A DNA stretch of 64,000 bases from Phycisphaerae bacterium (GTDB taxonomy: Bacteria > Planctomycetota > Phycisphaerae > UBA1845 > Fen-1342). Shown in pieces: positions 4,794 through 20,904 of this stretch (within the stretch, counting starts at the first letter, position 1; every line of letters begins with the position of its first letter). The notes below the pieces were generated by a model. That model had not been told where the DNA came from. It searched no databases and saw only the letters and a program-made list of their open reading frames with translations. Location: the NCBI GenBank assembly GCA_963675745.2, contig CAXXWX010000028.1, positions 1 through 64,000 on the forward strand. The letters run 5' to 3'. Both the position numbers and the translations under genes were made by a program.

Positions 4794-5945
4794 ATGTCCG
4801 CGACACGTATCGCCTGGGGGCTCATGCTCGGCCTGCTGATCTCGTTCGGCACAAGCCCCGCGCTCGCCGTGGATTCCGACGGCGACGGCGTCGATGACTT
4901 GCTCGATGTCTGTCCGAACACGCCGCCCGGGATTGTCGTTGATCCGGAAGGTCGGCCGTACGGCGACCTCGACCTCGACTGCGACGTCGATATCGACGAC
5001 TTCATCCTGTTTCAGTCAAACTTCACCGGGCCGATCGGCGAACCCGAAATCTGTGACGACGGCATCGACAACGATCTGGACAGCCTGATTGACTGCGAAG
5101 ACCCCGATTGCGACGGGCAGACTTGCGGCGTCAACGGTCTGATCTGCATCGAAGAAACATGCCAGTGTCCGGGGGACACCGAGATTTGTGATGACGGCGT
5201 GGACAATGACTGCGACGGCATGACCGACTGCGCAGACCTGGCCGACTGTCCGCAAGACACCGCCTGCGGCCCATTCGGCTATGCCTGCGATCCAAACGCC
5301 ATATGCTCCTGCACGCCGCCGTGGGCCGATTGTGACGGCAACTACGCCAACGGCTGTGAAACCGATCTTGATACCGATCCAGACCACTGCGGTGCCTGCT
5401 GGGATGCTTGCGACATCCCAAACGCCACCTCGCAGTGTGTCGGAGGCGAATGCCAGATGGTGGCCTGCCATACCGGCTGGTGTGATGATGACGGCCTGAT
5501 CGGTAACGGCTGTGAGAAGCAGCTTGATCTCGACCTGCCCTGTTCGTCATCCATCTACATCGGCTCCGTCGCCGGCGATGACTCCTCGAACTGGATCAGT
5601 CACAACCACGTTGGCGAGCAGTGGTTCTACGTTCTCGCGCGTGAAGACGACACCTCGCCGTTCTCCCCCGAAGACCTTGGAGTTACCGTGTACCTGATGC
5701 CGGCCGGCGGTACCGACTATGACCTTTACGTCTATTGCAGCGGCTGCGTCGCACTGGCCGGGTCGTCGACGAATGGTGGTTCCACGCCGGAGATGGTCAT
5801 AGTCGGCTGGGAAGATTCGTTGTTCGAGGATGATGACCGCGAAATTTACATCAAGGTGGACTACGTCCACGCCAACACGTGCGCCGAGTACACGCTGCAA
5901 GTGGAGCCGAACACGCCGGGCCCCGACAACTGCGCTGGGCCGTAA
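4794..5945 (+). CDS. Secreted Cys/Asp-rich protein with Ca-binding/dockerin-like and Cys-rich repeats
   Basis: GGGAGG RBS; signal peptide ending PALA; DSDGDGVDD..DVCP, GDLDLDCDVDIDDF, EICDDG.DND x2, DCDGN..NGCE, DYDLYVY. Confidence 0.75.
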   Translation: MSATRIAWGLMLGLLISFGTSPALAVDSDGDGVDDLLDVCPNTPPGIVVDPEGRPYGDLDLDCDVDIDDFILFQSNFTGPIGEPEICDDGIDNDLDSLIDCEDPDCDGQTCGVNGLICIEETCQCPGDTEICDDGVDNDCDGMTDCADLADCPQDTACGPFGYACDPNAICSCTPPWADCDGNYANGCETDLDTDPDHCGACWDACDIPNATSQCVGGECQMVACHTGWCDDDGLIGNGCEKQLDLDLPCSSSIYIGSVAGDDSSNWISHNHVGEQWFYVLAREDDTSPFSPEDLGVTVYLMPAGGTDYDLYVYCSGCVALAGSSTNGGSTPEMVIVGWEDSLFEDDDREIYIKVDYVHANTCAEYTLQVEPNTPGPDNCAGP

Positions 5946-6256
5946 CGCAGCGGTGGGTATCGTGAATACAATCACGACGCGCACCGATGGGGTCGCTGTC
6001 TTCAGGCGGCCTGGCTAGGCCCAAAGTCACGCAACCCGGTCGTTCGTAACACTGGTATTCAAACCGGCGCCGCCACATCGGCGCCGAATCGTCACCAGTG
6101 TGGACACCCTAACCCCTTACATATTAATATGTTACTAACCGCGTCGCCCCGCCCGTGCCGGCCACAACCACTGACGCCCACTCCCAACATCGCAATTTTC
6201 GCCAGCGTTTATCGGCATGTCCCCTTGGCGCGGCAGCTATGGGTGATTACACTGGA

Positions 6257-6274
6257 TTGTGAATGATTTCACGA
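6257..6274. promoter_or_regulatory. Palindromic operator, Rex-like (same spacing as CRP-family sites)
   Basis: TTGTGAATGATTTCACGA versus Rex consensus TTGTGAAnnnnTTCACAA (one mismatch), 56 nt before the operon's first ATG. Confidence 0.7.
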
Positions 6275-6330
6275 GCGGGCTGAGTTAATTAGTTATCGGT
6301 CGTATTTCGTTCGGCACGCGGGGACCGGTC

Positions 6331-6945
6331 ATGGCTGTCCTTATCTGGACGCCCGGTGACGAAACTGTTCGCAAGTCGGCCCATGAGCCGGACGGGGGGA
6401 AAACAACCACACAAACGCCGACCTCCCAACGCATCGTAGTGGTCGGTCTGGGCAACGAGTTGCTCGGCGATGATGGTGTAGGGATTCTCGCCGCTCGACA
6501 CATACAGCGGGAACTGTCGCCGCAACACCAGGTGCAGATTCGCGAGCTACCCTGGGCCGGGCTCGGGCTGCTTGACGTTTTGCGCGGCTTTGATCGCGCG
6601 ATTCTGATAGACGCGTTATCCAGCGACGGACGTTATCCACCCGGGACGGTACTACGGCTCACTGAGGACGATTTCGCGGGGTCGGTGCGGCTCAATTCAT
6701 TTCATGACATCAACTACCCCACCGCGCTGGCGCTGGGCCGTGCCTTCGGCTGGCCGCTGCCGCGCGCGATCGACATTTTCGCCGTCGAAGGTGGGTCGCT
6801 TTACGAATTCAAGACGCAGTTGTCGGCCCCGGTCGCGGCGGCGTTGAAGACGGTTGTACTCCTGGTCACGCAGATCGTGCGGGGCCACTGTGATGAGGTT
6901 GGCACGAGCGGGTTATACAAATTGGCCGCGGCCGACGTGGCTTGA
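6331..6945 (+). CDS. [NiFe]-hydrogenase maturation protease (HybD/HycI family)
   Basis: VVGLGNELLGDDGVG, AILIDA, SFHD motifs; the MvhA in the same operon has a cleavable C-terminal extension. Confidence 0.92.
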   Translation: MAVLIWTPGDETVRKSAHEPDGGKTTTQTPTSQRIVVVGLGNELLGDDGVGILAARHIQRELSPQHQVQIRELPWAGLGLLDVLRGFDRAILIDALSSDGRYPPGTVLRLTEDDFAGSVRLNSFHDINYPTALALGRAFGWPLPRAIDIFAVEGGSLYEFKTQLSAPVAAALKTVVLLVTQIVRGHCDEVGTSGLYKLAAADVA

Positions 6946-6985
6946 CGCAACCTCTCTTGCCAGCGCAAGAAACGAGAGGTGAGGC

Positions 6986-7657
6986 GTGCCCTCAGCAACT
7001 GGTATGGCCGCATTGCCGGCGGAGCCCGGCGTATTCGGCAAGACAGAACGGGAGTTGCACGAGGCATTTCTGGCGGAGGTCGACCGGATCCCCGGCGGCG
7101 AACGATTGAGGAGGTGCATCCAGTGCGGCACCTGCACCGGGTCATGCCCGGTGAGCTACGCAATGGACCTCACGCCGCGCGAGGTGGTCGCGTATTTCCG
7201 GGCCGGGGCTATTGATCCCATCCTGCGCAGCCGGACCATCTGGGTCTGCGCCTCATGCTACCAATGCACAACGCGTTGCCCGGCGAAGATCAAGATCACG
7301 GAACTGCTGTATGCGCTCAAGCGCGTGGCGTACGACAAGCGCGTCTTTCCCCAGCGTTTTCCCGTGTACGTGCTTTCCGAGACGTTCGTGCAGCAGATCA
7401 GGAAGTATGGCCGCAACCACGAAGCCGAACTGCTGCGCAAGTACTTCCTGCGCACGGGCATCCGGCGTCTGATCAAGCAAGCCCCGCTGGCGGCGAAACT
7501 GTGGCGCAAGGGATGCATTCGGCTTCGCCCGCAGAAAATCAAAGGCCTTGAGGGCCTGCGCCGCATCATCGCGCGGGCCGAGCAATTCGACCGACCGCCC
7601 ATGCACGAAAAGGAAGCCGGGCGGACACGCGAAGTTGGGTACGAAGCAATCGGCTGA
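6986..7657 (+). CDS. hdrC: Heterodisulfide reductase subunit C
   Basis: CIQCGTCTGSCP and IWVCASCYQCTTRCP; adjacent to hdrB. Confidence 0.93.
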   Translation: MPSATGMAALPAEPGVFGKTERELHEAFLAEVDRIPGGERLRRCIQCGTCTGSCPVSYAMDLTPREVVAYFRAGAIDPILRSRTIWVCASCYQCTTRCPAKIKITELLYALKRVAYDKRVFPQRFPVYVLSETFVQQIRKYGRNHEAELLRKYFLRTGIRRLIKQAPLAAKLWRKGCIRLRPQKIKGLEGLRRIIARAEQFDRPPMHEKEAGRTREVGYEAIG

Positions 7658-7714
7658 TATTACCAAGGGCGCCGGGGCCGCGCTGCGCGCACCCGGCCGC
7701 GCGGAGGGTGCTTC

Positions 7715-8608
7715 ATGGACTATTCCTACTATCCGGGCTGCAGCCTGCACTCCACCGGCGTGGCGTATGACGACTCGATGCGCGCCACGTTCGCCGCGCT
7801 GGGTGCCGGACTCATCGAGCTGGACGACTGGAACTGCTGCGGCGCAACGGCGTACATGTCGGTCAAGGAGACGGTCGCCTGCTCGGTGTCGGCGCGCAAC
7901 CTCGCGCTGGTCGAGCAGACCGGACTGGACCTGATCGCACCGTGCAGCGCCTGCTGGTGCGTGCTCAACAAGACGCGCAAGTTCATGCACGAACTGCCAG
8001 AGCTGCGCCAAAACGTCGAGACGGCGCTGAGGGAGGCGGGGCTGTCGTGCAAGTTCGAGTCGGCGGTCCGGCATCCACTGGAGGTCATTGTCAACGACTT
8101 CGGCGTGGACCAGCTCGTCGCCCGGCAGAAGCGCAGCCTCAACGGCCTGCGGGTGGCGTGCTATTACGGCTGCCAGATCGTGCGGCCGGCGCTGGCCATC
8201 GACGATGACGCCGAGGTGCCCATGGTGCTGGACGACCTGTTGGCGGGTCTCGGCGCGCAGCCGGTTCCGTATCCGCCCAAAGCACGCTGCTGCGGCGGCA
8301 TGCTGGTGGCCACGTTCGAGGATGTGGCCGCCAAGCTGTGCGATGAGCTGGCGAGCTGGGCGCGCGTCGAAAACGCGGATTGCATTGTCACCACCTGCCC
8401 GCTCTGCCACGCCAATCTGGAGCTGCTGCAGGAGAAAGCCAAAGCCGGCAACGGCACCGAGCGCGCGCCGCTGCCCGTCCTGTATTTCACACAGCTCATC
8501 GGCGTGGCCCTCGGTTGCAGCCCCGAGCAGGTTGGCCTGGACCACAACTTCACCGCCCTGCAACACGAATTCCCGAGACTCACGGAGGCGCCCAGCCATG
8601 TCGGATAG
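7715..8608 (+). CDS. hdrB: Heterodisulfide reductase subunit B
   Basis: YYPGCS, DWNCCGA, PCSAC, YYGC, CCGG, TCPLC (two CCG domains), PVLYFTQLIG. Confidence 0.95.
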   Translation: MDYSYYPGCSLHSTGVAYDDSMRATFAALGAGLIELDDWNCCGATAYMSVKETVACSVSARNLALVEQTGLDLIAPCSACWCVLNKTRKFMHELPELRQNVETALREAGLSCKFESAVRHPLEVIVNDFGVDQLVARQKRSLNGLRVACYYGCQIVRPALAIDDDAEVPMVLDDLLAGLGAQPVPYPPKARCCGGMLVATFEDVAAKLCDELASWARVENADCIVTTCPLCHANLELLQEKAKAGNGTERAPLPVLYFTQLIGVALGCSPEQVGLDHNFTALQHEFPRLTEAPSHVG

Positions 8609-9509
8609 TCGGGGCAACAACTCGAAGATCGGCGTGTACATCTGCCACTGCGGCGTCAATATCTCGCACACCGTCGACGTGGATGAGTGTCGTGAGTTCG
8701 CGCGGACATGCCCAAACGTGTCCGTCGCGCGCGACTACAAGTTCATGTGCTCAAACACCGGGCAGGAACTGATCCAGAGCGACATCGAAGAGCTGGGGCT
8801 CGACCGCGTCGTGGTCGCCGCCTGCTCGCCGTTGATGCACGAGACGACGTTTCGCGGCGCGTGCCAGGAGGCCGGGCTTAATCCATACCTCTTCCAGATG
8901 GCCAACATCCGCGAGCAGTGCGCGTGGGTACACGACGATCGCAAAATGGCGACGAAGAAAGCCCAGGCGTTGCTCAACGCCGCGATTCACCGCGTCGCGC
9001 TGCACGAGCCGTTGGAGCCGATGCGGGCCAAGATCAATCCGGCGACACTGGTCGTCGGCGCCGGCATCGCCGGTATCCAGGCCTCGCTGGAGTTGGCCGA
9101 GAGTGGCAACCCAGTGTACCTGGTCGAACGCGAGCCGTCGATCGGCGGGAAAATGGCGATGTTTGACAAGACTTTCCCGACCCTCGATTGCGCCGCGTGC
9201 ATCCTCACGCCCAAGATGGTGTCGATCAGCCATCGCAAGAACATCAAGCTCATGACCTATCACGAGGTGGTGAGCGTCAGCGGGTATATCGGTAATTACA
9301 AGGTCCGGTTGCGACGCAAGGCGCGCTATGTCGACCCTGAGAAGTGCACCGGGTGCGGCCAGTGCTGGAGCCACTGCCCCGCCGTGCGCATCCCCACGCG
9401 GCGGACGATTCGCCTGCCGGACAAAATCGTGGGCGAGAAAACGACAGCGCGCCAGCCGGGCACGAATGGACAGCCACAGCACAGCGGCAACGGAAACGGG
9501 AAACCATGA
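8598..9509 (+). CDS. hdrA: Heterodisulfide reductase subunit A, N-terminal half (split gene)
   Basis: KIGVYICHCG, VVAACSP, NIREQCAWVH, GAGIAG (FAD), DKTFPTLDCAACIL, RYVDPEKCTGCGQCWSHCP then a low-complexity tail; 303 aa. Confidence 0.93.
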   Translation: MSDSRGNNSKIGVYICHCGVNISHTVDVDECREFARTCPNVSVARDYKFMCSNTGQELIQSDIEELGLDRVVVAACSPLMHETTFRGACQEAGLNPYLFQMANIREQCAWVHDDRKMATKKAQALLNAAIHRVALHEPLEPMRAKINPATLVVGAGIAGIQASLELAESGNPVYLVEREPSIGGKMAMFDKTFPTLDCAACILTPKMVSISHRKNIKLMTYHEVVSVSGYIGNYKVRLRRKARYVDPEKCTGCGQCWSHCPAVRIPTRRTIRLPDKIVGEKTTARQPGTNGQPQHSGNGNGKP

Positions 9510-9919
9510 CCAAGGCGTCGGCAATCACGCTCGCGGACGCCGTCCAGGCGATCGATGCCCAGGCGCTCGGTGACTCCGGCGCCTGGGACAGGGTCCAGAT
9601 CACGTCGGGCGCGGGGGCCGATCTCATGAGCGACGTGCTGGCGTTTATCAACCCCGGCGCGCTACTGCTCACCGGCCTGACAAACGTGCAGTGCGTGCGG
9701 ACCGCGTTGATCGCCGACGTGAAGGCCCTGGTGTACGTGCGTGGGAAGCGCCCCGACGCGGCCAGCGTCGCGCTCGCACGCGAGCACAACCTGCCTTTGC
9801 TGTGTACGCCATTGACGATGTTTGAAGCGTGCGGCCGGCTTTACCAGGTCGGCCTGCCACCCTGTGTTCTGCCAGCACGCGGTGTGGATGACGATGACGC
9901 TTGTAAAGCGGCAGTTTGA
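9506..9919 (+). CDS. DRTGG-domain protein
   Basis: GADLMSDVL, LLLTGLTN.Q.VRTA, VRGKRP, MFEACGRLY; ATGA overlap with hdrA N-half. Confidence 0.85.
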   Translation: MTKASAITLADAVQAIDAQALGDSGAWDRVQITSGAGADLMSDVLAFINPGALLLTGLTNVQCVRTALIADVKALVYVRGKRPDAASVALAREHNLPLLCTPLTMFEACGRLYQVGLPPCVLPARGVDDDDACKAAV

Positions 9920-10331
9920 GATTCTCGGCGACGATTTCGCAAACGCCGGGAGCGTGTCAACTGAGATCAAGGCCCTGCTCAAGACCGTGGGCTACCCTGA
10001 GCAGGCCGTGCGCCGCGTCGCGATCGCGGTGTACGAAGCGGAGATGAACGTGGTGATGTACGCCCGGCGTGCCAGCGTGGTTGTCGATCTGGACGCCGAG
10101 TGCGTGCGAATCGTCATTGATGATGACGGTCCGGGCATCGCCGACGTAGAGGTTGCCATGCGGGAAGGCTATTCAACGGCCACGGATCGCATGCGGCAGT
10201 TGGGTTTCGGCGCCGGAATGGGGCTGCCCAACATGCGGCGGAATGCCGACGAACTGGCCATTGAATCAGAGGTTGGGCAAGGAACGCGCGTCCATCTCAT
10301 GGTGCGCGCAGGTGAGGCGAATCCGGGATAA
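9888..10331 (+). CDS. Anti-sigma-factor-type Ser/Thr kinase (HATPase_c)
   Basis: GDDFANAG, YEAEMNVV, DDGPGI, GYSTA, GFGAGMGLPN, SEVGQGT. Confidence 0.88.
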   Translation: MTMTLVKRQFEILGDDFANAGSVSTEIKALLKTVGYPEQAVRRVAIAVYEAEMNVVMYARRASVVVDLDAECVRIVIDDDGPGIADVEVAMREGYSTATDRMRQLGFGAGMGLPNMRRNADELAIESEVGQGTRVHLMVRAGEANPG

Positions 10332-10335
10332 GCAC

Positions 10336-11670
10336 ATGACGCTCCACTCGCGATCAGTGCGAATCGATCCCACCCGCTGCCGCGGGCACATGGCGTGTCT
10401 GCGAATCTGTCCGACCGAGGCCATCCGCGTACGCCAGGACGGCGCGCGGCTTCTACCGGGCTTGTGCATCGACTGCGGCATGTGCTTGAGCGTCTGCCCG
10501 ACCGGCGCCTTCTCGCCCCAGGTTGACGCATTCACCGCCTTCGATCGTTTCCGGCACACGATCGCGATCGCTTGCCCGGCGTTGTACGGGCAGTTTGATC
10601 GAGATGTGGAGCCGGAGACCATTCTCGCGTTGCTCCAGAAGCTGGGCTTCAGCGAGGCTGTCGATATGAGCGCCGCAACCGAAGCGGTGCTGCTCGAGTT
10701 GCAACGGATCCTGTCGGAGCGCAGCGGACCCGATCCGCTGATATCACCATTCTGCCCGGCGGTCGTGCGCCTGACACAGGTTCGCTACCCGTCACTGGTA
10801 AATCTGATCACGCCGCTGGAGTCGCCACAGGAATTGCTGGCGGCGGCGTTGCGTGAAAACCGGGCGCGCGTGCTGGGCCTGCGACCCGATCAGATCGGCA
10901 TCGTGTACATCACACCCTGCACGGCAAAGACCGCGGCCCTGAAACTGCACACGCAATTCGAGCCATCGCATCTCGATGGCGCTGTTGCCATCAGCCACGT
11001 GTACGGCCGTCTGCGCGCCGCGCTGGAGGACGCCGATCCGGCGCCCCGGTCGGCGAATAACGGCGTGTGCGGCCCCGGCTTGAATTGGGCGCTGGTGGGT
11101 GGCCAGGGACTCGCGCTGGAACCGGATGACGCGCTGGCGGTCAGCGGGCTCGAAAACGTCGTGCGCGCACTCGACGATATCGAGCGCGGGCAAATCCGCG
11201 ACGTGGCCTATCTCGAGTGCTGGGCCTGCCGCGACGGCTGCGTCGGCGGCTGCCTCACAGTGGGCAATCCCTATCAGGCGCGGCGCCGACTAATGCGACT
11301 CGCCCGGCAACGCGGCCTGGACTTCAACGTCGAGCGCGCCGCCGTGCGCAATCTGTCAGGACATTCGGCGCTGCGCGCGACGCCTGTTGTGCCGCGTCAA
11401 GGAAACCCGCTCGACTCTGATCTGCTGACATCGCTGGAGAAGATGCGTCAGGCGGATGAGCTGCGCGCCAGGTTGCCGCAAAACAACTGCGGTGCATGTG
11501 GCTCGCCGAGCTGCCGCGCCTTCGCCGAGGATGTTGTGCAGGGTCGCGTGGATGAAACGGACTGCGTGTTCCTGCTGCGCGGGCGTCTGCACGCCGCGAA
11601 ACATGAGTTGGACTCCATCGTCAACCGGTTACCCACCGCGCGGCTGGGCGCGACGGAGGACGCCGAATGA
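10336..11670 (+). CDS. Putative sensory [FeFe]-hydrogenase-like protein (group D-like architecture)
   Basis: N-terminal ferredoxin motifs (CRGHMACLRICP, CIDCGMCLSVCP); divergent H-cluster motifs SPFCP, TPCTAK, ECWACRDGCVGG; C-terminal FeS domain LPQNNCGACGSPSC. Confidence 0.85.
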   Translation: MTLHSRSVRIDPTRCRGHMACLRICPTEAIRVRQDGARLLPGLCIDCGMCLSVCPTGAFSPQVDAFTAFDRFRHTIAIACPALYGQFDRDVEPETILALLQKLGFSEAVDMSAATEAVLLELQRILSERSGPDPLISPFCPAVVRLTQVRYPSLVNLITPLESPQELLAAALRENRARVLGLRPDQIGIVYITPCTAKTAALKLHTQFEPSHLDGAVAISHVYGRLRAALEDADPAPRSANNGVCGPGLNWALVGGQGLALEPDDALAVSGLENVVRALDDIERGQIRDVAYLECWACRDGCVGGCLTVGNPYQARRRLMRLARQRGLDFNVERAAVRNLSGHSALRATPVVPRQGNPLDSDLLTSLEKMRQADELRARLPQNNCGACGSPSCRAFAEDVVQGRVDETDCVFLLRGRLHAAKHELDSIVNRLPTARLGATEDAE

Positions 11671-12014
11671 AGCTGCGCGCACTGATTGATGCACTAGGGC
11701 TAAAGCTGTGCTGCGGAGAGGCGCACCTGGAACGTGAGGTGACGGGTGGCTACGTCGGCGACCTGCTGAGCGACGTGGTGGCCAACAGTCACGCCGGCGA
11801 CATTTGGGTCACGCTTCAGGCGCACGAGAACTCTGTCGCCGTGGCGAGCCTGCGCGATCTGGCCGGCATCGTTTTTGTGGGTGGTCGCGAGCCGAACGAG
11901 GAGACCGCGCGGCAAGCCGAGCAGCGCGGCGTACCTCTGCTGAGCAGTTCCGAACGGGCTTTTGAGGTGGTTGCGCGCCTGGTCGAGGCCGGCGTGCCGA
12001 CGAGACGAGCGTGA
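11667..12014 (+). CDS. DRTGG-domain protein
   Basis: VTGGYVGDLLSDV, IWVTLQAHENSVAVASL. Confidence 0.85.
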   Translation: MKLRALIDALGLKLCCGEAHLEREVTGGYVGDLLSDVVANSHAGDIWVTLQAHENSVAVASLRDLAGIVFVGGREPNEETARQAEQRGVPLLSSSERAFEVVARLVEAGVPTRRA

Positions 12015-12015
12015 G

Positions 12016-12750
12016 ATGCGGACTTTTCGCGCCGATTTGCATGTCCACACGTGTTTGTCGCCCTGCGGCGAGCTCGAAATGACGCCGCGCGCCATCCTTG
12101 ATGTCGCCCAGCGGCGGCGCCTGGATATCGTCGGCATCTGCGATCACAACGCGGCGGCAAATGTGCCCGCCGCCGTGCGCGCCGCACACCCTGGGGCAAC
12201 GGTTGTCATCGCCGGACTCGAGGTCACGTCGCGTGAAGAGGTACACGTGCTGGCGCTCTTCGACACTCCCGCGGCGGCGCTCGATATGCAGGCGTACGTG
12301 CTCGCCCATCTCGCCGGTGAGAACGACGCCGACGTGTTTGGCCCACAGGTGATCGTAGACGACGCCGGCGACCCGGCCGAGTTGTGCCCGCACCTGCTGA
12401 TCGGAGCGACCGACCTCAGCCTGTCCGAGGTTGTTGAAGCGATACACGCCCGCGCGGGTTGTGCGATCGCGGCCCATGTCGATCGTGAGCGTTTCGGGGT
12501 CATTGGGCAGCTTGGTTTCGTGCCGCTGGCGCTGCCGCTGGACGGGCTGGAGTTCTCGCCGCGCGTCTCGCGCGCCGACGCCCGGCTGCGCTACGCCGAC
12601 AACGACCGATGGGAGCTCGTCTGTGGCTCGGATGCGCACCGCCTGGATGAAATCGGCCGCGGCTGGACTGATTTTGAATTGGAACGACCTGAGGTCGCGG
12701 AAATCCGCATGGCACTGCATCGCACCGGAGGACGACGCGTCGTCGCGTGA
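12016..12750 (+). CDS. PHP-domain metal-dependent phosphoesterase
   Basis: DLHVHTCLSPC, ICDHN, EEVH, AHVDR, SDAH. Confidence 0.9.
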   Translation: MRTFRADLHVHTCLSPCGELEMTPRAILDVAQRRRLDIVGICDHNAAANVPAAVRAAHPGATVVIAGLEVTSREEVHVLALFDTPAAALDMQAYVLAHLAGENDADVFGPQVIVDDAGDPAELCPHLLIGATDLSLSEVVEAIHARAGCAIAAHVDRERFGVIGQLGFVPLALPLDGLEFSPRVSRADARLRYADNDRWELVCGSDAHRLDEIGRGWTDFELERPEVAEIRMALHRTGGRRVVA

Positions 12751-12760
12751 AGATACGCCA

Positions 12761-13330
12761 ATGGAAGACCTCTCGCTGCACATGCTGGACATCGCCGAAA
12801 ACTCGATCCGCGCCGGTGCGCGCCTCGTTGAGCTGCGCGTGCGCGAAGACGATTCAAGCGGCCTGCTGGAGATTGAGATCAGCGATGACGGTTGCGGCAT
12901 GGATGAGCAGGCGCGCCGCGCGGCGCTGAGTCCGTTCAGCACCTCGCGCACCGAACGCGACATCGGTCTGGGCTTGCCGCTATTGGCCCAGGCGGCGCGC
13001 GCAACCGGCGGTGACTTTGAGATTCGTTCCGAACCCGGACACGGCACGCGCGTGCGGGCGACATTCATGGCCGATCACATTGACTGCAAGCCGTGGGGCG
13101 ATCTGCTGGGCAGCTTTCGCACGCTCGCCGTGGGCAACCCGCAGGTGCGCTTCGTGCTGGAAGTGATCGGGCGTGATGGAGTCGAGCGGCTCGACTCCCG
13201 CCAATTGCGCGACACGACGGAGACCAAACCCGGCCGCGCGGCGCCGAAACACGTCGCCGCACCGGCCAATCGTCTGACACAAGATCCAGACTCGAATTGC
13301 GCGGAGCATGATGATGTCGACAGTCGCTGA
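12761..13330 (+). CDS. Histidine-kinase-like ATPase (HATPase_c)
   Basis: MEDLSLHMLDIAENS, DDGCGM, PFSTSRT, GLGLPL, SEPGHGT. Confidence 0.88.
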   Translation: MEDLSLHMLDIAENSIRAGARLVELRVREDDSSGLLEIEISDDGCGMDEQARRAALSPFSTSRTERDIGLGLPLLAQAARATGGDFEIRSEPGHGTRVRATFMADHIDCKPWGDLLGSFRTLAVGNPQVRFVLEVIGRDGVERLDSRQLRDTTETKPGRAAPKHVAAPANRLTQDPDSNCAEHDDVDSR

Positions 13331-13817
13331 GTACACCGAAACGCAGACACGCGAGATCATCGATCGCTGGGGCGGCCATCCGTCCTTCGTGATCGAGATG
13401 TTGCAGGACGTGCAGCAGAGCGCGCGGTATCTGCCCAAGGACGCCCTGAGCGAAATATCCAGCGCCACCGGCGTACCGATGGCGCAGCTCTACCACCTGG
13501 CAACTTTCTACAAGGCCTTCAGTCTCGAGCCGCGCGGGCAATTCGTGGTTCGCGTGTGCCAGGGCACCGCTTGTCACGTGCAAGGAGGTGTGCGCGTGAT
13601 GGAGTCCTGCTGCCGGCATCTCGATGTCGAGCCGGGTGAGACCACGCCGGACGGGATGTTCAGCGTGGAGCCCGTCCAGTGCCTGGGCTGCTGCGGGCTC
13701 GCGGCGGTCATGACCGTGGAAGACGATCTCTACGGGCACGTGAAATCCGTGCGCGTGCCGAAAATCCTCGACAAGTACAAGAAGCTGGCGGCCAAGTCGG
13801 AGGAGTCGACGTCATGA
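13308..13817 (+). CDS. NuoE/HydC-like [2Fe-2S] subunit
   Basis: ATFYKAFSL.PRG, VCQGTACHVQG, CLGCCGLA. Confidence 0.92.
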   Translation: MMMSTVAEYTETQTREIIDRWGGHPSFVIEMLQDVQQSARYLPKDALSEISSATGVPMAQLYHLATFYKAFSLEPRGQFVVRVCQGTACHVQGGVRVMESCCRHLDVEPGETTPDGMFSVEPVQCLGCCGLAAVMTVEDDLYGHVKSVRVPKILDKYKKLAAKSEESTS

Positions 13818-14194
13818 AACTCACCGCTGATAAGCTCACGCAACTGCGTGATGAAATCCGGGCGCAGCAGTCCGCGCGCGAGAGCGAGTCGCGCGCGACG
13901 GTCACAGTCCACATGGGCACCTGCGGCATCTCGGCCGGGGCGCGCGAGGTGATGACGGCCTTGCTGGACGCCCTGCGCGAGCGAGCCGTGAATGACGTTC
14001 GCGTGACCACGTCGGGCTGCGCCGGTCTGTGCAGCCGCGAGCCGATGGCCACAGTCCAGATTCATGAACAGGCCCCGGTCAAATACGTCGAACTGAACGC
14101 CGGCAAAATCGCCCGCATTCTGGATGACCACATCCTCGGCGGCGAGATTGTCAAGGAATACGCGCTGGCCATTGGCAGTGAGAGGACCGCCTGA
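13814..14194 (+). CDS. Thioredoxin-like [2Fe-2S] ferredoxin subunit (HydD/HndB-like)
   Basis: VHMGTCGISAGAR, SGCAGLCSREP, HILGG. Confidence 0.88.
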   Translation: MKLTADKLTQLRDEIRAQQSARESESRATVTVHMGTCGISAGAREVMTALLDALRERAVNDVRVTTSGCAGLCSREPMATVQIHEQAPVKYVELNAGKIARILDDHILGGEIVKEYALAIGSERTA

Positions 14195-16080
14195 TGTTGG
14201 AGCCCACGAAACCCCAAAACGGGAACGGCAACGGCGCGGCCCCGACCGGCCAGCGCCTGCACCTGATGGTCTGTGCCGGTACCGGGTGCGTCAGTAACAA
14301 CTCGATGAAGGTCAAGGAGGCGCTGGACGCCGAAATCGAGCAGCGCGGGCTCGCGAGCGAGGTCCAGGTGATCGCGACGGGCTGCAACGGCTTCTGCGGA
14401 GTCGGGCCGCTGTTGCTGGTCCAGCCTGACGGCATCCTGTACCAGAAACTGCAGCCGAGTCATATCCCGCACCTCGTCGAAGAGCATCTGCTGAAAGGAC
14501 GGCCGGTCGAGAAGCACATGTATCAACCACCCGAGGGCGGCCATCCGATTCCGCTGATGCACGACATCCCCTTCTTCAGAAAGCAGGTGTTGATCACGCT
14601 GCGAAACCGCGGACTGATCGATCCAGAGAAGATCGACGACTATATCGCGCGCGACGGCTATCAAGCGCTCGCCAAGGCCCTCACGCAGATGACTCCCCAG
14701 CAGGTGGTCGACGAGGTCAAGGCCTCGGCGCTGCGTGGTCGCGGCGGCGGCGGTTTCCCGACCGGCGTGAAGTGGGAGACCTGCCGCAACGCACACTCGG
14801 AAGACGGTGCCAAGTACGTGATCTGCAACGCCGACGAGGGTGATCCCGGCGCCTTCATGGACCGCAGCATCATCGAGGGCAACCCCCACTCCGTGATCGA
14901 AGGCATGCTCATCGGCGCCTATGCCATCGGCGCCACCAAGGGGTTCATCTACGTCCGGCTCGAATATCCGTTGGCGCTGAAGCGCTTTCTGATCGCGCTC
15001 GGACAGGCGCGCGAGTACGGGCTGCTGGGCGAGAACATCCTCGGCACCGATTTCAGCCTCGACATCGAAGTTCACCGGGGCGCCGGCGCGTTTGTCTGCG
15101 GCGAGGCCACCGCCTTGATGGCTTCGATTGAGGGACGCGTCGGCGAGCCGCGCGCCAAATACGTCCACACCGTTGAGCGCGGACTCTGGGATCGTCCCTC
15201 CTGCCTCAACAACGTCGAGACCTGGGCCAACGTGCCATTGATCATCCGCGACGGCGCGAGCTGGTTCACGCAGCTCGGCACCGGCGATACCAGCGAGAGC
15301 CCGTGGGGCGGGTCGAAGGGCACAAAGGTGTTTTCGCTCGCCGGCAAGGTGAACAACACCGGCCTGGTCGAAGTTCCCATGGGTATCACCCTGCGCGAAA
15401 TCATCTACGACATCGGCGGTGGCATCCAGGACGGCAAGAAATTCAAGGCGGTGCAGACCGGCGGGCCATCGGGCGGGTGTCTGCCCGAGCGTTTGCTCGA
15501 CACGGACATTCTCGATCTTGAGGTCGACTTCGACACGCTGGTCCAGGCCGGCTCGATGATGGGTTCGGGCGGCATGGTCGTCATGGCCGAAGACGATTGC
15601 ATGATCGATGTGGCCCGCTACTTCATCGAGTTCCTCATGGGCGAGTCGTGCGGCAAGTGTACACCCTGCCGCGAGGGGCTCCGCAACATGGCCGCGATTC
15701 TCAAGCGCATCTGCGACGGCCAGGGGCGCGAAGGCGACATCGAGCTGCTCGAGGAATTGGGCCACGCCATGATGGATGGATCGTTGTGCGGGCTGGGCAC
15801 ATCGGCCCCCAATCCGATCATGAGCACGATTCGCTATTTCCGCGAAGAGTTCGAGGCGCACATCCGCGACAAGAAATGCCCGGCGGGCGTGTGCCGCGAG
15901 CTGGTGACGTTTTCGATCGACCCCGAGCGCTGCAACGGCTGCACGCTGTGCGCCCAGGCCTGCCCGGCGCGGGCGATCGTCGGTGAGAAGAAGAAGGTGC
16001 ACGCGATCGAGCCGACCAACTGCACAAAGTGCGGCGCGTGCTATGACGCGTGCAACTTCCACGCGGTGATTCGCAACTGA
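14194..16080 (+). CDS. NuoF/HydB-like NADH/FMN subunit with extra Fe-S domains
   Basis: N-terminal VCAGTGC..GCNGFC; LRGRGGGGFPTG, CNADEGDPGAFMDR, GAGAFVCGE, GGPSGG, ESCGKCTPCR, CPAGVC; C-terminal 2x[4Fe-4S]. Confidence 0.95.
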   Translation: MLEPTKPQNGNGNGAAPTGQRLHLMVCAGTGCVSNNSMKVKEALDAEIEQRGLASEVQVIATGCNGFCGVGPLLLVQPDGILYQKLQPSHIPHLVEEHLLKGRPVEKHMYQPPEGGHPIPLMHDIPFFRKQVLITLRNRGLIDPEKIDDYIARDGYQALAKALTQMTPQQVVDEVKASALRGRGGGGFPTGVKWETCRNAHSEDGAKYVICNADEGDPGAFMDRSIIEGNPHSVIEGMLIGAYAIGATKGFIYVRLEYPLALKRFLIALGQAREYGLLGENILGTDFSLDIEVHRGAGAFVCGEATALMASIEGRVGEPRAKYVHTVERGLWDRPSCLNNVETWANVPLIIRDGASWFTQLGTGDTSESPWGGSKGTKVFSLAGKVNNTGLVEVPMGITLREIIYDIGGGIQDGKKFKAVQTGGPSGGCLPERLLDTDILDLEVDFDTLVQAGSMMGSGGMVVMAEDDCMIDVARYFIEFLMGESCGKCTPCREGLRNMAAILKRICDGQGREGDIELLEELGHAMMDGSLCGLGTSAPNPIMSTIRYFREEFEAHIRDKKCPAGVCRELVTFSIDPERCNGCTLCAQACPARAIVGEKKKVHAIEPTNCTKCGACYDACNFHAVIRN

Positions 16081-16092
16081 TGGAGCGCGACG

Positions 16093-17853
16093 ATGGTTAC
16101 CATCGAGATTGACGGACAGAAGGTGCAGCTCGAAGAGGGCGAGCCGATTCTGCGCGGCGCCGAAAAGCTCGGCATACGCATCCCCACCCTGTGCAGCAGC
16201 CCCTGGCTCGAGCCGAGCGGCGCCTGTCGCGTCTGCTCGGTCGAGGTGGTGCGCCGCAACAAGGGACGCATTGTCACCGCCTGCAACTACCCGGCCTCCG
16301 AGGGCCTGGTCGTGAAGACGGATTCAGAGCGGGCGCTCGCGGTGCGACGGATGGTGCTGGAGACACAGCTCGCGCGCTGTTCGCACGTGCCGGCCATCCA
16401 GGAGCTGGCGCGCGAATTCGGTATCGAGAAATCACGCTTCGGCGAAGGCACCGAGACGTGCATTCTCTGCGGACTTTGCGTGCGCACCTGCGCCGAGCTG
16501 GTCCAGGCCAACGCGCTGTGTTTCGGTGATCGTGGCGTCGACCGCGTCGTTACGACACCGTTCGAGGTCTCGGCCGAGGCCAACACCTGCATTGCCTGCG
16601 GCGCCTGCGTGAGCGCCTGCCCGACCGACCACATTTCGCTGGAAGATCACGCGCTGCGGCGTGGCGCCACGCAGGACTTCTACCTTGGCCCGAAGACCGC
16701 CATCAACCTGCCCTTCCAGCAAGCTGTGCCAAAAGTCCCCTGGATCGACGCCGACGCCTGCATCAAGCTCCAGACCGGCGGGTGCGGCATCTGCGCCCAG
16801 GTCTGCGAGCCCGGCGCCATCAACTATGAACAAAAGGACGAGGAATTCGAGATTGAAGTCGGCCAGATCCTCCTGACGACCGGCTATCAGCCGTTCGCGA
16901 TGGAGCAGATGGCCCAATATGGCTATGGTCGGCTGGACAACGTCTACACGGCGCTTGATTTCGAGCAGATGTTGAACTCGACCGGGCCGACCGGAGGAAA
17001 GGTCCTCTGCAAGGACGGCAAAACCCCGCACGCCATCGGAATCATTCACTGCGTCGGCTCGCGCGATGAGACCCAGCACCGCTACTGCTCGCGCGTCTGC
17101 TGCATGTACGCGCTCAAATTCGCCCACCTGGTGACCGAGCGCACGGACGCCGAGGTTTACCAGTTCTACATCGACATGCGCGCTTTTGGCAAAGGTTACG
17201 AGGAGTTCTATTCGCGCGTCTTGAACGAGGGCGCGACGGTGATCCGCGGCAAGGTCGCCGAGATCGCGCCGGCGCTGGGGCGCGGCAACGGGACGCGTGA
17301 AGGTCACCTGCTCGTGCGCTGCGAGGACACGCTGGTCGGCAAGTTCCGCGAAATCCCGGTGGACATGGTCGTGTTGTGCAATGCCCTCGAGCCACATGCG
17401 GACGTTGCCGACGTCGCCAAGACCTTCTCGCTTTCGCGCAGCCCGGATGGTTTCTACCTCGAACGACACCCGAAGCTCGATCCGGTCGGCACGATGACCG
17501 ACGGCGTCTACATCGCCGGCACCTGTCAGGGACCAAAGGACATTCCCGACACGGTCGCGCAGGCGCAGGCGGCGGCGGCCCGCATCCTGGCGCTGATCGG
17601 CAAGGGTGAAGTGCTCATCGATCCCATTCGGGCCGCCATCAACGCCGACAACTGCTCGGGTTGCCGAATGTGCAACGCCCTGTGTCCCTACCAGGCTATC
17701 TCGTTCAACGAGGAGCTGACGGTGTCCGAGGTGAACGAAACGCTGTGCAAGGGTTGCGGCACGTGTGTGGCCGCGTGTCCCACCGGCGCCATCACCGGCT
17801 CGGGCTTTACAGACGAGCAGATCATGACCGAACTCGAAGCCATTCTGGTTTAG
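16093..17853 (+). CDS. Fusion of HydA/NuoG-like N-terminal Fe-S module and HdrA C-terminal half
   Basis: aa 1-185: IPTLC, GACRVC, TAC, CILCGLCVRTC, CIACGACVSACP. From aa ~195: KTAINLPFQQAVP, CVGSRD, YCSRVCCMYALK, FYIDMRAFGKGYEEFY, HPKL.PV, CQGPKDIPD, C-terminal 2x[4Fe-4S]. Confidence 0.92.
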   Translation: MVTIEIDGQKVQLEEGEPILRGAEKLGIRIPTLCSSPWLEPSGACRVCSVEVVRRNKGRIVTACNYPASEGLVVKTDSERALAVRRMVLETQLARCSHVPAIQELAREFGIEKSRFGEGTETCILCGLCVRTCAELVQANALCFGDRGVDRVVTTPFEVSAEANTCIACGACVSACPTDHISLEDHALRRGATQDFYLGPKTAINLPFQQAVPKVPWIDADACIKLQTGGCGICAQVCEPGAINYEQKDEEFEIEVGQILLTTGYQPFAMEQMAQYGYGRLDNVYTALDFEQMLNSTGPTGGKVLCKDGKTPHAIGIIHCVGSRDETQHRYCSRVCCMYALKFAHLVTERTDAEVYQFYIDMRAFGKGYEEFYSRVLNEGATVIRGKVAEIAPALGRGNGTREGHLLVRCEDTLVGKFREIPVDMVVLCNALEPHADVADVAKTFSLSRSPDGFYLERHPKLDPVGTMTDGVYIAGTCQGPKDIPDTVAQAQAAAARILALIGKGEVLIDPIRAAINADNCSGCRMCNALCPYQAISFNEELTVSEVNETLCKGCGTCVAACPTGAITGSGFTDEQIMTELEAILV

Positions 17854-17894: not shown

Positions 17895-18362
17895 ATGAAC
17901 ACGGATCTGGCGCCTGCGGGCGCGAAAACCGAACGAGCGACGCCGGCCGACAGCGACAACTGGCAGCCCAAGATCGTCGCCTTCCTGTGCAACTGGTGCA
18001 GCTACACCGGCGCCGATCTGGCCGGCGTCTCGCGCATGAAGTGGTCGGCGTGCGTGCGCAATGTGCGCATCATGTGTACCGGACGCATGGACCCCACCTT
18101 TGTCGTCGAGGCCTTTCGCAAGGGCGCCGACGGCGTGCTCATCTCCGGTTGTCACCCCGGCGACTGTCACTACATCCAGGGGAATTACAAAACCCTACGA
18201 CGTGTACATCTGCTGAAACGCCTGCTGGCGGACTTCGGGGTTGAGCCTGAGCGACTAAAGCTCACCTGGGTCTCGGCCAGCGAGGGCGATCGCTGGGCGG
18301 AAGTCACCAACGAAATCACGGAAACCATCCGGTCACTTGGACCTTTGAGGTTGGAACTATGA
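17895..18362 (+). CDS. mvhD: Methyl-viologen-reducing hydrogenase delta subunit
   Basis: FLCNWCSYTGADLAG, MCTGR, GCHPGDCHY..GN, WVSASEG; alternative start GTG 17886. Confidence 0.95.
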   Translation: MNTDLAPAGAKTERATPADSDNWQPKIVAFLCNWCSYTGADLAGVSRMKWSACVRNVRIMCTGRMDPTFVVEAFRKGADGVLISGCHPGDCHYIQGNYKTLRRVHLLKRLLADFGVEPERLKLTWVSASEGDRWAEVTNEITETIRSLGPLRLEL

Positions 18363-19429
18363 ATGAGGGAGCTGCTGCATCCTCGGATTCTAAGCCGGAA
18401 GCGACGGCAAAGCCCAAACTGGCGCTTTACTGGGCGGCCTCCTGCGGCGGGTGCGAAATCGCCGTGCTCGACATAAAGGAGAAGATCCTCGATGTCGACG
18501 CCAATTTCGAGATCGTCTTCTGGCCGGTCGCCGTGGATTTCAAGACCAAGGATGTCGAGGCTTTGGCCGACGGCGCGATCACGCTCTGCCTGTTCAACGG
18601 CGCGATCCGCACCGACGACAACGAATACATGGCCAAACTGCTGCGCCGCAAGTCACAGGTGCTGGTGGCCTTCGGCTCGTGCGCCATGGAGGGCTGCATC
18701 CCCGCGCTGAGCAACTCAACATCGCGCGCGGCCACGCTCGATTGGGTCTACCGCGACTCCCCATCAACCGACAACGACGCGGACGTCCGACCACAGACCA
18801 CGAGCAAGGTCAACGGCTTCGACATCGAGCTGCCGGCATTCTGGGAGACCGTACGGGCGCTCGATCAGGTGGTGGATGTGGACTATTACGTGCCCGGCTG
18901 TCCGCCGCAGGCACATCAAATCTGGGCCGTGCTCGAGACGGTCATCGACATTCTCAAGACCGGCAAGCCGCTGCCACCGAAGGGCACCGTGCTGGGCGCG
19001 GGCAACAAGAGCTGTTGTGACGAATGCCCGCGCACGCGCGAAGAGAAGAAGATCAGCAAGTTCGTGCGGATCGTTGACGTCATTCCGGACCCCGACAAGT
19101 GCCTGCTGGACCAGGGCATTCTGTGCATGGGACCCGCGACACGTGACGGCTGCGGGGCCAAATGCGTGTCCGTGGGCATGGCCTGCCGCGGCTGCTACGG
19201 ACCGCCGCCCAACTCAAAGGATCAGGGGGCCAAGATGATTTCGGCGCTGGCATCCGTGATTGACTCGGAGGATCCCGAGGAAATCGAGCGCATCCTGGAT
19301 GGCGTCCTTGATCCGATCGGCAGCTTCTATCGCTTCTCACTCGCAACCGCCAGGCTCGGGCGACGACGCATGCCGGGCCAACCGGCGGGCGCCGGCGCAA
19401 CGCGGCACGTAACGGAGGATACACCGTGA
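18359..19429 (+). CDS. mvhG: Group 3c [NiFe]-hydrogenase small subunit
   Basis: WAASCGGCE, FGSCA.EGCIP, PGCPP, CDECP, CLLDQG.LCMGPATR.GC, CRGCYGP. Confidence 0.92.
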   Translation: MNEGAAASSDSKPEATAKPKLALYWAASCGGCEIAVLDIKEKILDVDANFEIVFWPVAVDFKTKDVEALADGAITLCLFNGAIRTDDNEYMAKLLRRKSQVLVAFGSCAMEGCIPALSNSTSRAATLDWVYRDSPSTDNDADVRPQTTSKVNGFDIELPAFWETVRALDQVVDVDYYVPGCPPQAHQIWAVLETVIDILKTGKPLPPKGTVLGAGNKSCCDECPRTREEKKISKFVRIVDVIPDPDKCLLDQGILCMGPATRDGCGAKCVSVGMACRGCYGPPPNSKDQGAKMISALASVIDSEDPEEIERILDGVLDPIGSFYRFSLATARLGRRRMPGQPAGAGATRHVTEDTP

Positions 19430-20904
19430 AGACGATCAAAATCGATCCGGTCACGAGACTGGAAGGACACGGGCGTATCGACATCTTCGTCAACGACGAC
19501 GGGGATGTGGCCGATTGCTTCTTCGTCGTCCCGGAGCTGCGCGGTTTCGAGCAGTTCTGTGTCGGCCGGCCCGTCGAGGAGATGCCCCGCATCACGTCGC
19601 GCATTTGCGGCGTGTGCAGCGAGGCCCACCACATCGCCGCCGCAAAGGCCTGTGACGCTGTCTATCACGTCGAGCCGCCGCCCGCGGGCCGCAAACTGCG
19701 CGAGTTGCTCTATTCGGCGTTTTTCACGGGCGACCATGCGACGCACTTTTATATCCTGGCCGCACCGGATTTCGTGTTGGGCCCCGACGCCCCGCCGGCC
19801 GAGCGCAATATTCTGGGTTTGATCAAGAAGGTTGGCCTGGAGGCGGGCAAGCGCGTGATCGATGCGCGGGCCGCCGCTCATGAGATTGTCGAGCTCATCG
19901 GCGGCAAGACCGTACACATGGTCAGCGCGATTCCCGGCGGCGTATCGAAGGGGGTGACGAGCGAGCAGCGCGATCGTATGGTCGAACTTGCCGGGCAGTT
20001 GGTCGAATTCGGCAAGTTCACGCTGGACATTCTGCAATCGGTCGTGCTGGATAACAAAGGCTACGTCGATCTGATCCTGTCCGACACGTACACCCATCGA
20101 ACGCACTACATGGGCCTCGTGGACGAACACAACCACCCCAACTTCTATGATGGGCAGATCCGCGTTGTCGATCCCGACGGAGCCCAGGTCGCAAAGTACG
20201 CCGCGCGCGACTATCTCCAACACGTCGCGGAGCACGTGGAGACGTGGTCTTACCTGAAATTCCCTTACCTCAAGGCGCGCGGGTGGCACGGGCTGGTTGA
20301 TGGCAACGACAGCGGTGTGTATCGCGCTACCCCCCTTTCACGTCTCAACGCCGCCGACGGCATGGCGACGCCGCTCGCACAAGCCGAATATGAACGTTTC
20401 TACGAGACGCTCACCGGCGATCGCAGCGGTCACAAGCCGGTGCACCAGACGCTCGCGACGCATTGGGCGCGCGTGGTTGAGCTGGTTTACGCCGCCGAAC
20501 ACACCCTGGAGCTCGCGCGCGACGAGGAGATTCTGGACCCGTGCGTGCGTGTCGTCCCAACGGCCACGCCGGACGAGGGCGTGGCAACTGTCGAGGCGCC
20601 GCGTGGCACGCTCACACATCATTACGTCACCGATGAGCGCGGCGTGCTGACCAGCGTCAACCTGATCGTCGGCACGACCAACAACAACGCGGCGATCTGC
20701 ATGTCGATCAAGAAGGCCGCACAAGCGCTGATTCAAAAGGGCGTCGAGGTCACAGAGGGTTTGCTGAATCGCATCGAGATGGCGTTTCGCGCCTACGATC
20801 CGTGCTTCGGCTGCGCCACGCACACGCTGCCCGGAAAGATGCCAATGGCCGTGCGCATTTTGAATGCAAATGGCGAAGTCCTCGCCCACGGACAGCGCGA
20901 CTGA
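19426..20904 (+). CDS. mvhA: Group 3c [NiFe]-hydrogenase large subunit
   Basis: DPVTRLEGH, L1 RICGVC, EAPRGTL.HHY, L2 RAYDPCFGCATH followed by a 25-aa extension. Confidence 0.95.
   Translation: MKTIKIDPVTRLEGHGRIDIFVNDDGDVADCFFVVPELRGFEQFCVGRPVEEMPRITSRICGVCSEAHHIAAAKACDAVYHVEPPPAGRKLRELLYSAFFTGDHATHFYILAAPDFVLGPDAPPAERNILGLIKKVGLEAGKRVIDARAAAHEIVELIGGKTVHMVSAIPGGVSKGVTSEQRDRMVELAGQLVEFGKFTLDILQSVVLDNKGYVDLILSDTYTHRTHYMGLVDEHNHPNFYDGQIRVVDPDGAQVAKYAARDYLQHVAEHVETWSYLKFPYLKARGWHGLVDGNDSGVYRATPLSRLNAADGMATPLAQAEYERFYETLTGDRSGHKPVHQTLATHWARVVELVYAAEHTLELARDEEILDPCVRVVPTATPDEGVATVEAPRGTLTHHYVTDERGVLTSVNLIVGTTNNNAAICMSIKKAAQALIQKGVEVTEGLLNRIEMAFRAYDPCFGCATHTLPGKMPMAVRILNANGEVLAHGQRD

Follow-up and report, generated by a model that had tools for sequence, protein, structure and literature searches.

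An hdrA gene split within its inserted ferredoxin domain and joined to a Bfu module in a Phycisphaerae operon

Results

A split hdrA in an operon with hdrBC and mvhDGA

We analysed a 64,000 nt stretch of DNA from a Phycisphaerae bacterium (assembly GCA_963675745.2, contig CAXXWX010000028.1, positions 1-64,000; hereafter the window), in which the gene for the flavoprotein HdrA lies in two pieces within an operon that also carries hdrB, hdrC and the [NiFe]-hydrogenase genes mvhDGA. The front piece is an open reading frame (ORF) of 303 amino acids at 8598-9509, with a genuine stop codon that overlaps the ATG of the next gene. The back piece is not a free gene: it forms the end of a 586-amino-acid ORF at 16093-17853, HdrA-like from about residue 193 onwards (~394 amino acids), where it is fused in frame behind an Fe-S head of ~190 residues of the NuoG/HydA type, here called the BfuA head. 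The two HdrA segments are 7,273 bases apart, matching the gap of ~7.3 kb given in an earlier note on this DNA. The genes of the operon are as follows.

6331-6945, plus strand: [NiFe]-hydrogenase maturation protease (PF01750, TIGR00072; start codon uncertain)
6986-7657, plus strand: hdrC, 2x[4Fe-4S] (Fer4_8; TIGR03290 under its equivalog cut-off)
7715-8608, plus strand: hdrB, two CCG domains (cluster Cys align with methanogen HdrB)
8598-9509, plus strand: HdrA front half, 303 amino acids (N-terminal cluster domain, FAD-binding GxGxxG, C198/C201 pair, C250/C253/C256/C260)
9506-9919, plus strand: DRTGG-domain protein 1, putative regulator (PF07085)
9894-10331, plus strand: anti-sigma-factor-like ATPase/kinase (PF13581; TIGR01925 under cut-off; start uncertain)
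10336-11670, plus strand: Fe-S protein with [FeFe]-hydrogenase-like fold and degenerate H-cluster motifs, putative sensor (PF02906 and PF04060, motifs)
11667-12014, plus strand: DRTGG-domain protein 2 (PF07085)
12016-12750, plus strand: PHP-family phosphoesterase (PF13263)
12761-13330, plus strand: stand-alone HATPase_c (histidine-kinase-like) protein (PF02518)
13308-13817, plus strand: BfuC / NuoE-like [2Fe-2S] subunit (PF01257, NF005722)
13814-14194, plus strand: small Cys-containing subunit in the BfuD/HydD position (resembles the BfuB N-terminal domain; position conserved; zero Pfam or NCBIfam matches at the thresholds used)
14194-16080, plus strand: BfuB / HydB-like FMN-NAD(P) subunit, ligands for B1-B5 (best PDB matches 7q4v_B, 7t2r_B, 9mqx_B)
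16093-16668, plus strand: BfuA head, residues ~1-192, [2Fe-2S] and 2x[4Fe-4S] (fused in frame to the HdrA back half)
16669-17853, plus strand: HdrA back half, residues ~193-586 (C223/C231/C234/C238, E291, K342, core cluster Cys 320/332/336/337)
17895-18362, plus strand: mvhD, adaptor [2Fe-2S] (PF02662)
18359-19429, plus strand: mvhG, [NiFe]-hydrogenase small subunit (NF045875 best match, under cut-off)
19426-20904, plus strand: mvhA, [NiFe]-hydrogenase large subunit (group-3c-type L1/L2 motifs)

The two pieces are complementary, as the earlier note had read them. The front half aligns to residues 4-261 of methanogen HdrA (PDB 5ODC) and the back half likewise matches HdrA; on profile NF040770 they span positions 1-258 and 261-640, with zero overlap, and together they reach full length. 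All five HdrA domains (N-terminal cluster domain, thioredoxin-reductase-like FAD core, inserted 2x[4Fe-4S] domain, core cluster and C-terminal 2x[4Fe-4S] domain) are present across both chains. The front half closes with the motif C250-C253-C256-C260, followed by a conserved tail of ~20 amino acids and then a variable one, and the back half also carries the second FAD motif and the C-terminal 2x[4Fe-4S] domain. E291 and K342 are the equivalents of Glu356 and Lys409 at the FAD (numbering of PMC12054007, placed by position in aligned motifs; for this and the other papers cited by PMC or bioRxiv number, statements refer to the parts of the text that were available). Compared with an unsplit HdrA of ~657 amino acids from the same class, the break falls a few residues past the last Cys of the first motif of the inserted ferredoxin domain, between its two cluster motifs. 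The single polypeptide of ~650 amino acids that is characteristic of type I HdrA is thus replaced by two ORFs, one of 303 amino acids and one contributing ~394 amino acids of a fusion, and a tblastn search of this genome (a bin 91% complete and 6% contaminated) returned no second hdrA. GC level is flat across the region. A repeat search revealed no mobile-element ends, terminal repeats being limited to ferredoxin-motif similarity, and promoter and terminator scans of the region yielded no more than shuffled sequence. In hdrB, the His after the first Cys of the second CCG domain is replaced by Gln.

The split recurs in about ten phyla

We compared this locus with 80 related loci, the best of 416 relatives found with the fusion in species-level genomes, a sample biased towards the fusion. 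The nearest named relatives are metagenome-assembled genomes of Phycisphaerae and other Planctomycetota. Fifty of the 80 loci, from about ten phyla, have the split layout: 39 with a long cassette between the halves, ten with a short one made up of BfuC and BfuB (plus BfuD in a single locus) and one with nothing between (L046). The fusion with its upstream part cut off accounts for another 11, single chains with GltD inside for ten, fragments for seven and re-fused single chains for two (L004, L006). By their recorded names, the split loci belong to Planctomycetota, Sumerlaeota, Ignavibacteriota, Bacteroidota, Chlorobiota, Calditrichota, Zixiibacteriota, Acidobacteriota, Aminicenantes, Fischerbacteria, Fidelibacterota and Bacillota. 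Because the two pieces are separate ORFs on one contig in all 50 of these loci, the split is not a product of chance or mis-assembly.

Both halves are also under constraint. The conservation alignment comprised 47 pairs, the window and 46 loci in which both ORFs are intact (excluding L013, L021, L052, L059 and L001). The four ferredoxin motifs around the break contain 16 Cys, every one of which is invariant in 47/47 pairs; so are the core-cluster Cys, the C198/C201 pair, E291 and K342, in line with the earlier statement that both halves keep their FAD and Cys motifs. The ratio of nonsynonymous to synonymous substitution rates (dN/dS) of the halves is 0.02-0.12 in four of six pairs; in the other two, dS is saturated in most comparisons. 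Decay of either half in relatives had been named as grounds for giving up the idea of one split gene; the 47 intact pairs speak against decay, and interrupted ORFs do occur in the five loci left out of the alignment. We are confident that the split architecture is real, conserved and under selection.

The halves are predicted to share their clusters

Pairwise distances among front halves correlate with those among back halves at 0.79 (Mantel p 0.001, 36 loci; related loci are not independent), a closer match than front half with hdrB (0.44), front half with BfuB (0.61) or back half with its own BfuA head (0.61) in the same 36 loci. We modelled residues 230-290 of the front chain together with residues 112-260 of the back chain and four [4Fe-4S] clusters. 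The complex scored 0.69, compared with 0.03 for the best control; among solved complexes 116 of 157 reach that mark, and among mismatched pairs 2 of 215, figures that apply here only approximately. Runs shared at least 83% of their contacts, and the predicted local distance difference test (pLDDT) of the partner was at least 63. The pairs with lowest error include C234-C260 and C238-C256, suggesting cross-ligation of the 2x[4Fe-4S] domain, and in the best run the front fragment also touches BfuA residues 122-187. The model predicts that the two clusters of the inserted domain are each bound by three Cys of one chain and a fourth Cys of the other (C250/253/256 with C238; C223/231/234 with C260), so the earlier suggestion that both clusters need ligands from both polypeptides gains the backing of a structure prediction.

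The insert is a Bfu module with putative regulators

The earlier note had taken the gap for a whole hydrogenase cassette. This part of the claim did not hold. Judged by sequence, the insert is a BfuABC(D) module plus six putative regulatory genes, and the hydrogenase of the operon is the downstream [NiFe] MvhDGA, since the HydA-like part ends after its Fe-S head and lacks an H-cluster domain, hydG and hydF were not found, and hypD is present in the genome. A search of 16093-17853 found no H-cluster domain (PF02906), and the only PF02906 match in the genome is the separate 444-amino-acid protein at 10336-11670. Among maturases, hydG was not found and hydF gave nothing above cut-off in this 91% complete bin; hydG occurs in one of five related genomes tested. 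None of 32 loci carrying the nearest BfuB or regulator homologues, sampled in this phylum and several of them cut short, has an H-cluster HydA by motif. The idea that the cassette is a truncated group A3 [FeFe]-hydrogenase operon was rejected on these 32 loci.

The NuoF-like protein at 14194-16080 is nearest to bifurcating HydB/BfuB chains. B1-B4 ligands are present in all 55 complete embedded BfuB copies and B5 ligands align in 51 of them; by the criteria of PMC7311640 for bifurcating BfuB, Phe is found at the T. maritima 367 position in 54/55 and the Pro of GGPSG in 53/55. Together with the [2Fe-2S] subunit BfuC, this BfuB (FMN/NAD site, B1-B5) has the composition of a Bfu module. The first ~190 residues of the 586-amino-acid chain match the Fe-S heads of BfuA, HydA and NuoG (8a6t_A, 9mqx_A), with C34/45/48/64 and both ferredoxin motifs invariant in the 47 pairs, and the His-ligated A3 motif occurs in 0/60 fusions. 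On its motifs, the head fits the Type 2 BfuA (A1, A2 and A4, without A3) defined in PMC9304861.

The second Glu of the BfuB CGEET motif is Ala in the window (residue 305 of 14194-16080), and across the 55 embedded copies this position is Ser in 34, Ala in 15, Glu in five and Gly in one. We take this Glu to favour NAD over NADP; a paper search found nothing on the point. The hydrogenase-fold Fe-S protein at 10336-11670 retains its cluster Cys, and the relatives matched have Phe before the first motif's Cys. From its motifs, it may act as a sensor without an H-cluster, because hydG was found in only one of five related genomes and not in this one. Similar regulatory genes lie beside group A3 operons in Firmicutes. 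Two non-Hdr Bfu operons (L123, L124) carry DRTGG, anti-sigma ATPase and Fe-S genes downstream of a long BfuA; read as a circle, their gene order equals that of the window's cassette.

Variants of the layout

HdrA front matches were found in 70 of 301 genomes of the window's class. Twenty-nine other loci examined in this class comprise 20 complete ordinary HdrA, one split as here, one re-fused, one of GltD type, three in which the front half is fused to BfuC and three that are cut or frameshifted. HdrA-front::BfuC, BfuB and BfuA::HdrA-back occur together in L111-L114. The best 120 database matches of one front::BfuC fusion all carry the BfuC domain PF01257; one of its matches (P0088) bears an archaeon name. 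In-frame HdrA-front::BfuC fusions are also seen in L128, L129, L145 and L146, and the back half is fused to BfuA in L111-L114, L129 and L145, which ties the module at both ends. In the short-cassette loci, a ferredoxin signal in six is mostly the BfuB N-terminal domain, and L022 has a separate gene.

The two re-fused loci encode a single chain of 836 amino acids (L004:8945-11452, L006:8906-11413) that consists of an HdrA front with split-type tail, the ferredoxin domain of BfuA only, and an HdrA back. Neither locus has BfuBC genes, and the chain is likely a re-fusion after loss of the cassette. In the split operon at L113:9880-13124, the genes after mvhD are not mvhGA but other Fe-S genes and one of AsrB/FlxA-like type.

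History of the split

Trees of the front and back halves show largely the same groups, as expected of one split gene. Single insertion followed by vertical descent is too simple. GltD-type chains lie among split forms in both trees, one of them (L050) within the window's own group, and the re-fused chains keep the split-type tail. A single clade of Bfu-bearing HdrA, as against ordinary HdrA, was rejected for both halves (approximately unbiased test, p-AU 0.0013 front and 0.0007 back; 35 of 57 rows after dropping GltD rows and 12 near-duplicates, under a simple model, with the hypothesis set after the tree was seen); for the front half with all 57 rows, p was 4e-9. Embedded BfuB likewise do not form one group among 58 rows (FastTree only). 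Because neither forms a single group, the loop of the inserted domain appears to have acquired or swapped NAD(P) modules on more than one occasion, or else some lineages reverted; the trees do not distinguish the two. We also considered an insertion by single crossover, in which the conserved tail of the front half would be the hairpin after the last motif of a stand-alone short BfuA; with 23 tails scored of 27 extracted, the best p was 0.05, which is not significant.

Discussion

Proposed mechanism

We propose, with somewhat more confidence than doubt, that HdrA is here made as two chains that come together again as a single flavoprotein, the BfuA head being fused at the rebuilt ferredoxin domain and the Bfu module sitting on the low-potential exit of HdrA. 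By analogy with the methanogen Hdr and Bfu structures, H2 would be oxidised at MvhAG, and electrons would pass via MvhD to the HdrA FAD and be split there. The high-potential arm would lead through HdrCB to some disulfide or carrier. The low-potential arm would lead through the shared ferredoxin domain to BfuA (A4-A2-A1) and on to BfuBC, which would split these electrons again, to NAD(P)+ and ferredoxin. The six upstream cassette genes may regulate the complex and would be dispensable in some lineages. As to the direction of flow, H2 uptake and H2 evolution seem to us about evenly balanced.

Several features fit this arrangement. The inserted domain begins within ~17 residues of the last cluster motif of BfuA; it is the low-potential exit in solved Hdr complexes (PMC13518236, PMC13580544, bioRxiv 10.64898/2026.04.10.717634), and in Wor-Bfu the partner connects at A4 (PMC12318220). 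The input side varies with Bfu held constant, being MvhDGA here and MvhD with an AsrB/FlxA-like gene in L113. By its L1/L2 motifs, compared with PMC6085437, and its adjacent MvhG and MvhD, and with hypD in the genome, the hydrogenase belongs to group 3c (Mvh), an assignment based on motifs and not on a hydrogenase phylogeny. The split itself may be the price of the BfuA fusion: BfuA could not be nested in frame, as GltD is in HdrL, because it starts with a [2Fe-2S] domain of its own and depends on BfuB and BfuC as separate partners. With assumed potentials (H2 -414, NAD -280, ferredoxin -500 and acceptor -140 to -280 mV), two bifurcations in series would lower the equilibrium H2 pressure from 67-15,459 Pa to 0.9-214 Pa, values that are an illustration and not a measurement.

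More broadly, and rather tentatively, since we give it somewhat less than an even chance, we suggest that the operon represents a widespread, undescribed H2-oxidising supercomplex with two unrelated bifurcation sites in series, in the reverse of the Bam order (see below), joined by a ferredoxin domain that both HdrA halves ligate and whose loop took up Bfu more than once. If so, the H2 pressure that still allows ferredoxin reduction would drop ~70-fold at the assumed potentials.

A number of observations weigh against the proposed mechanism. Because solved HdrA resembles the modelled domain, the pass of the complex model shows likeness and not binding; one of its three runs scored only 0.41, and it gives contacts, not cluster-to-cluster distances. 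The position of a fusion is by itself no proof of an electron path, and NADH has been proposed to enter type III HdrA at the inserted domain (PMC12054007). DsrC, looked for as a candidate high-potential acceptor, was not found. The MvhA-like subunit is about equally close to the large subunit of NiFe-Bfu (7t2r_D, E 2.9e-111) and to MvhA (5odc_F, E 2.2e-108). The front half is interrupted in four split loci (L013, L021, L052, L059) and the fusion in L001, which may reflect sequencing errors or decay. Lastly, mvhD is absent within the locus in six split loci (L014, L018, L022, L023, L027, L046), and such copies may use Bfu as their input. In the five of these genomes that were tested, mvhD is found elsewhere, in three within ~15 kb, in or beside a second operon or mvhDGA block. 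The neighbours within ~15 kb are a second operon with a BfuA::HdrA fusion, long cassette and mvhDGA (L157, beside L023, genome G681), a fusion remnant with mvhDGA (L158, beside L046, G682) and mvhDGA at a contig end (L156, beside L014, G678). A group 3b-type hydrogenase lies near the split copy in L014, L018 and L023.

Alternative explanations

The same two-chain complex could run in reverse, as the electron sink of a fermenter: Bfu would join electrons from NAD(P)H and reduced ferredoxin and feed the inserted domain, and HdrA would split them to HdrCB and to H2 at MvhAG. Such a direction has been put forward for type III HdrA, which has GltD at this domain (PMC12054007), and BamGHI is a confurcating input in Bam (bioRxiv 10.64898/2026.04.10.717634); the split copies without local mvhD and the RnfC gene in this genome also suit it. 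We nonetheless judge it unlikely, if worth serious attention, as it requires the input and low-potential ports of HdrA to swap relative to solved complexes, and the normal input side (C-terminal ferredoxin domain and MvhD) is intact.

It is improbable that only one flavin site bifurcates, with Bfu a plain NAD(P)+ reductase (possibly preferring NADP) on the low arm, or HdrA a mere wire. The replaced second Glu of CGEET, Ala here and Ser, Ala or Gly in 50 of 55 embedded BfuB, could point that way. However, the same position is Ser in 9mqx_B, a chain of the bifurcating Wor-Bfu entry, the marks of bifurcating BfuB listed in PMC7311640 (Phe367 position, GGPSG) are retained together with the B1-B5 ligands, and the E356/K409 equivalents of HdrA are present in 47/47 pairs.

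Less probable still, and in our view very much so, is that the halves assemble around a rewired ferredoxin domain, with in-cis pairing of the last BfuA motif and the back-half motif, and with the front motif pairing elsewhere or holding no cluster. A sequence search does align the second BfuA motif (C166-C176) with the first HdrA motif, as though the inserted domain were complete on the back chain, but against 9mqx_A and 8a6t_A both BfuA motifs align together as a unit, the motif of the front half is invariant in 47/47 pairs, and the complex model pairs that motif with C223-C238. Finally, we count as refuted by conservation the idea of a gene broken by mobile insertion or mis-assembly into halves without joint function, which draws on the few related loci with interrupted halves and is opposed by the flat GC level, the lack of terminal repeats beyond ferredoxin motifs, the recurrence of this break across about ten phyla and the purifying selection.

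Relation to known systems

The proposed two-chain complex is built from modules that are each known. MvhAGD-HdrABC of hydrogenotrophic methanogens (PDB 5ODC, 8RVU, 9SFI) has all six subunit types, the same HdrA domain order, the same FAD-site Glu and Lys and a similar low-potential exit domain. By contrast, HdrA here is two chains in a bacterial host, and the exit domain is fused to BfuA, whereas the methanogen one docks ferredoxin, MvhB or FwdF.

The class II benzoyl-CoA reductase Bam[(BC)2DEFGHI]2 (bioRxiv 10.64898/2026.04.10.717634) likewise combines HdrA-type and Bfu-type flavin modules in a single complex, and it too has a three-cluster, short BfuA (BamI) and an MvhD-type adaptor. In Bam, however, Bfu is on the input side, from BamI to the C-terminal ferredoxin domain and BamF, and the inserted domain carries BamBC. 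In the operon described here, the inserted domain is the site of the Bfu fusion, and mvhD is accompanied by [NiFe]-hydrogenase genes. BamE, with its double core, is a fused HdrA dimer, in contrast to the split HdrA, single HdrA core in the genome and separate hdrB and hdrC found here, and family scans of this operon found neither a BamBC tungsten module nor a fused BamD.

HdrL, the type III HdrA with GltD (PMC12054007), shares an NAD(P)-linked module in the inserted ferredoxin domain and an hdrCB-hdrA-mvhDGA context. It differs in being a single chain whose insert is one FAD domain placed ~25 residues later, just before the second motif, and in having no FMN/Bfu core; the insert here is a gene cassette ending in BfuA, not an in-frame GltD. 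Type 2 Bfu systems such as WorABCSL (PDB 9MQX; PMC9304861, PMC12318220) have BfuBC with B1-B5, a short BfuA with A1, A2 and A4 but no A3, and a partner after A4. Here, by sequence, the partner is covalently fused and is itself a bifurcating-type flavoprotein, HdrA; section 5 of PMC9304861 lists no BfuA fused to HdrA. Group A3 [FeFe] hydrogenases, HydABC(D), share the C-D-B-A gene order and the Fe-S head of HydA, but the A subunit here lacks the H-cluster domain, and hydG and hydF were not found in the genome.

A full-text literature search, outside which lay most subscription papers, the main HdrA-class review and supplements, returned no description of an HdrA split here or fused to BfuA or BfuC. 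The available parts of PMC7325909, PMC11237513 and bioRxiv 2024.09.26.615249 do not describe the split, and that of PMC3362086 does not mention 'hdr'. A genome paper on an Ignavibacteriae bacterium, which may or may not be among the genomes compared here, mentions only MvhADG/HdrABC.

According to the available text of the Bam preprint, the coexistence of two unrelated bifurcation modules was previously unreported, and Bam is the only complex in which it has been shown. The operon would add a second example, from anaerobes of about ten phyla, in which the modules stand in the opposite order and are fixed there by a fusion of genes. It offers tests of the substrate of bacterial HdrABC, of the energy on the low arm of HdrA and of the assembly of a 2x[4Fe-4S] domain from two chains. 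The layout also matters for annotation, because the pieces do not read as HdrA; the front::BfuC fusions bear names such as NuoE or PreA.

Flanking genes and other observations

Judged by eye, the operon is flanked at 4743-5945 and 20802-23456 by genes for secreted-looking proteins that carry Cys/Asp-rich or dockerin-like repeats, and the ORF at 23434-24621 resembles, again by eye, a fused MsrB-MsrA methionine sulfoxide reductase. Elsewhere in this genome (G000), Hox-like and hypD matches on contigs C2 and C16 score identically, which is likely a bin duplication, and the rnfC match at C1:184517-185840 lies in two pieces in different frames, a possible frameshift or sequencing error.

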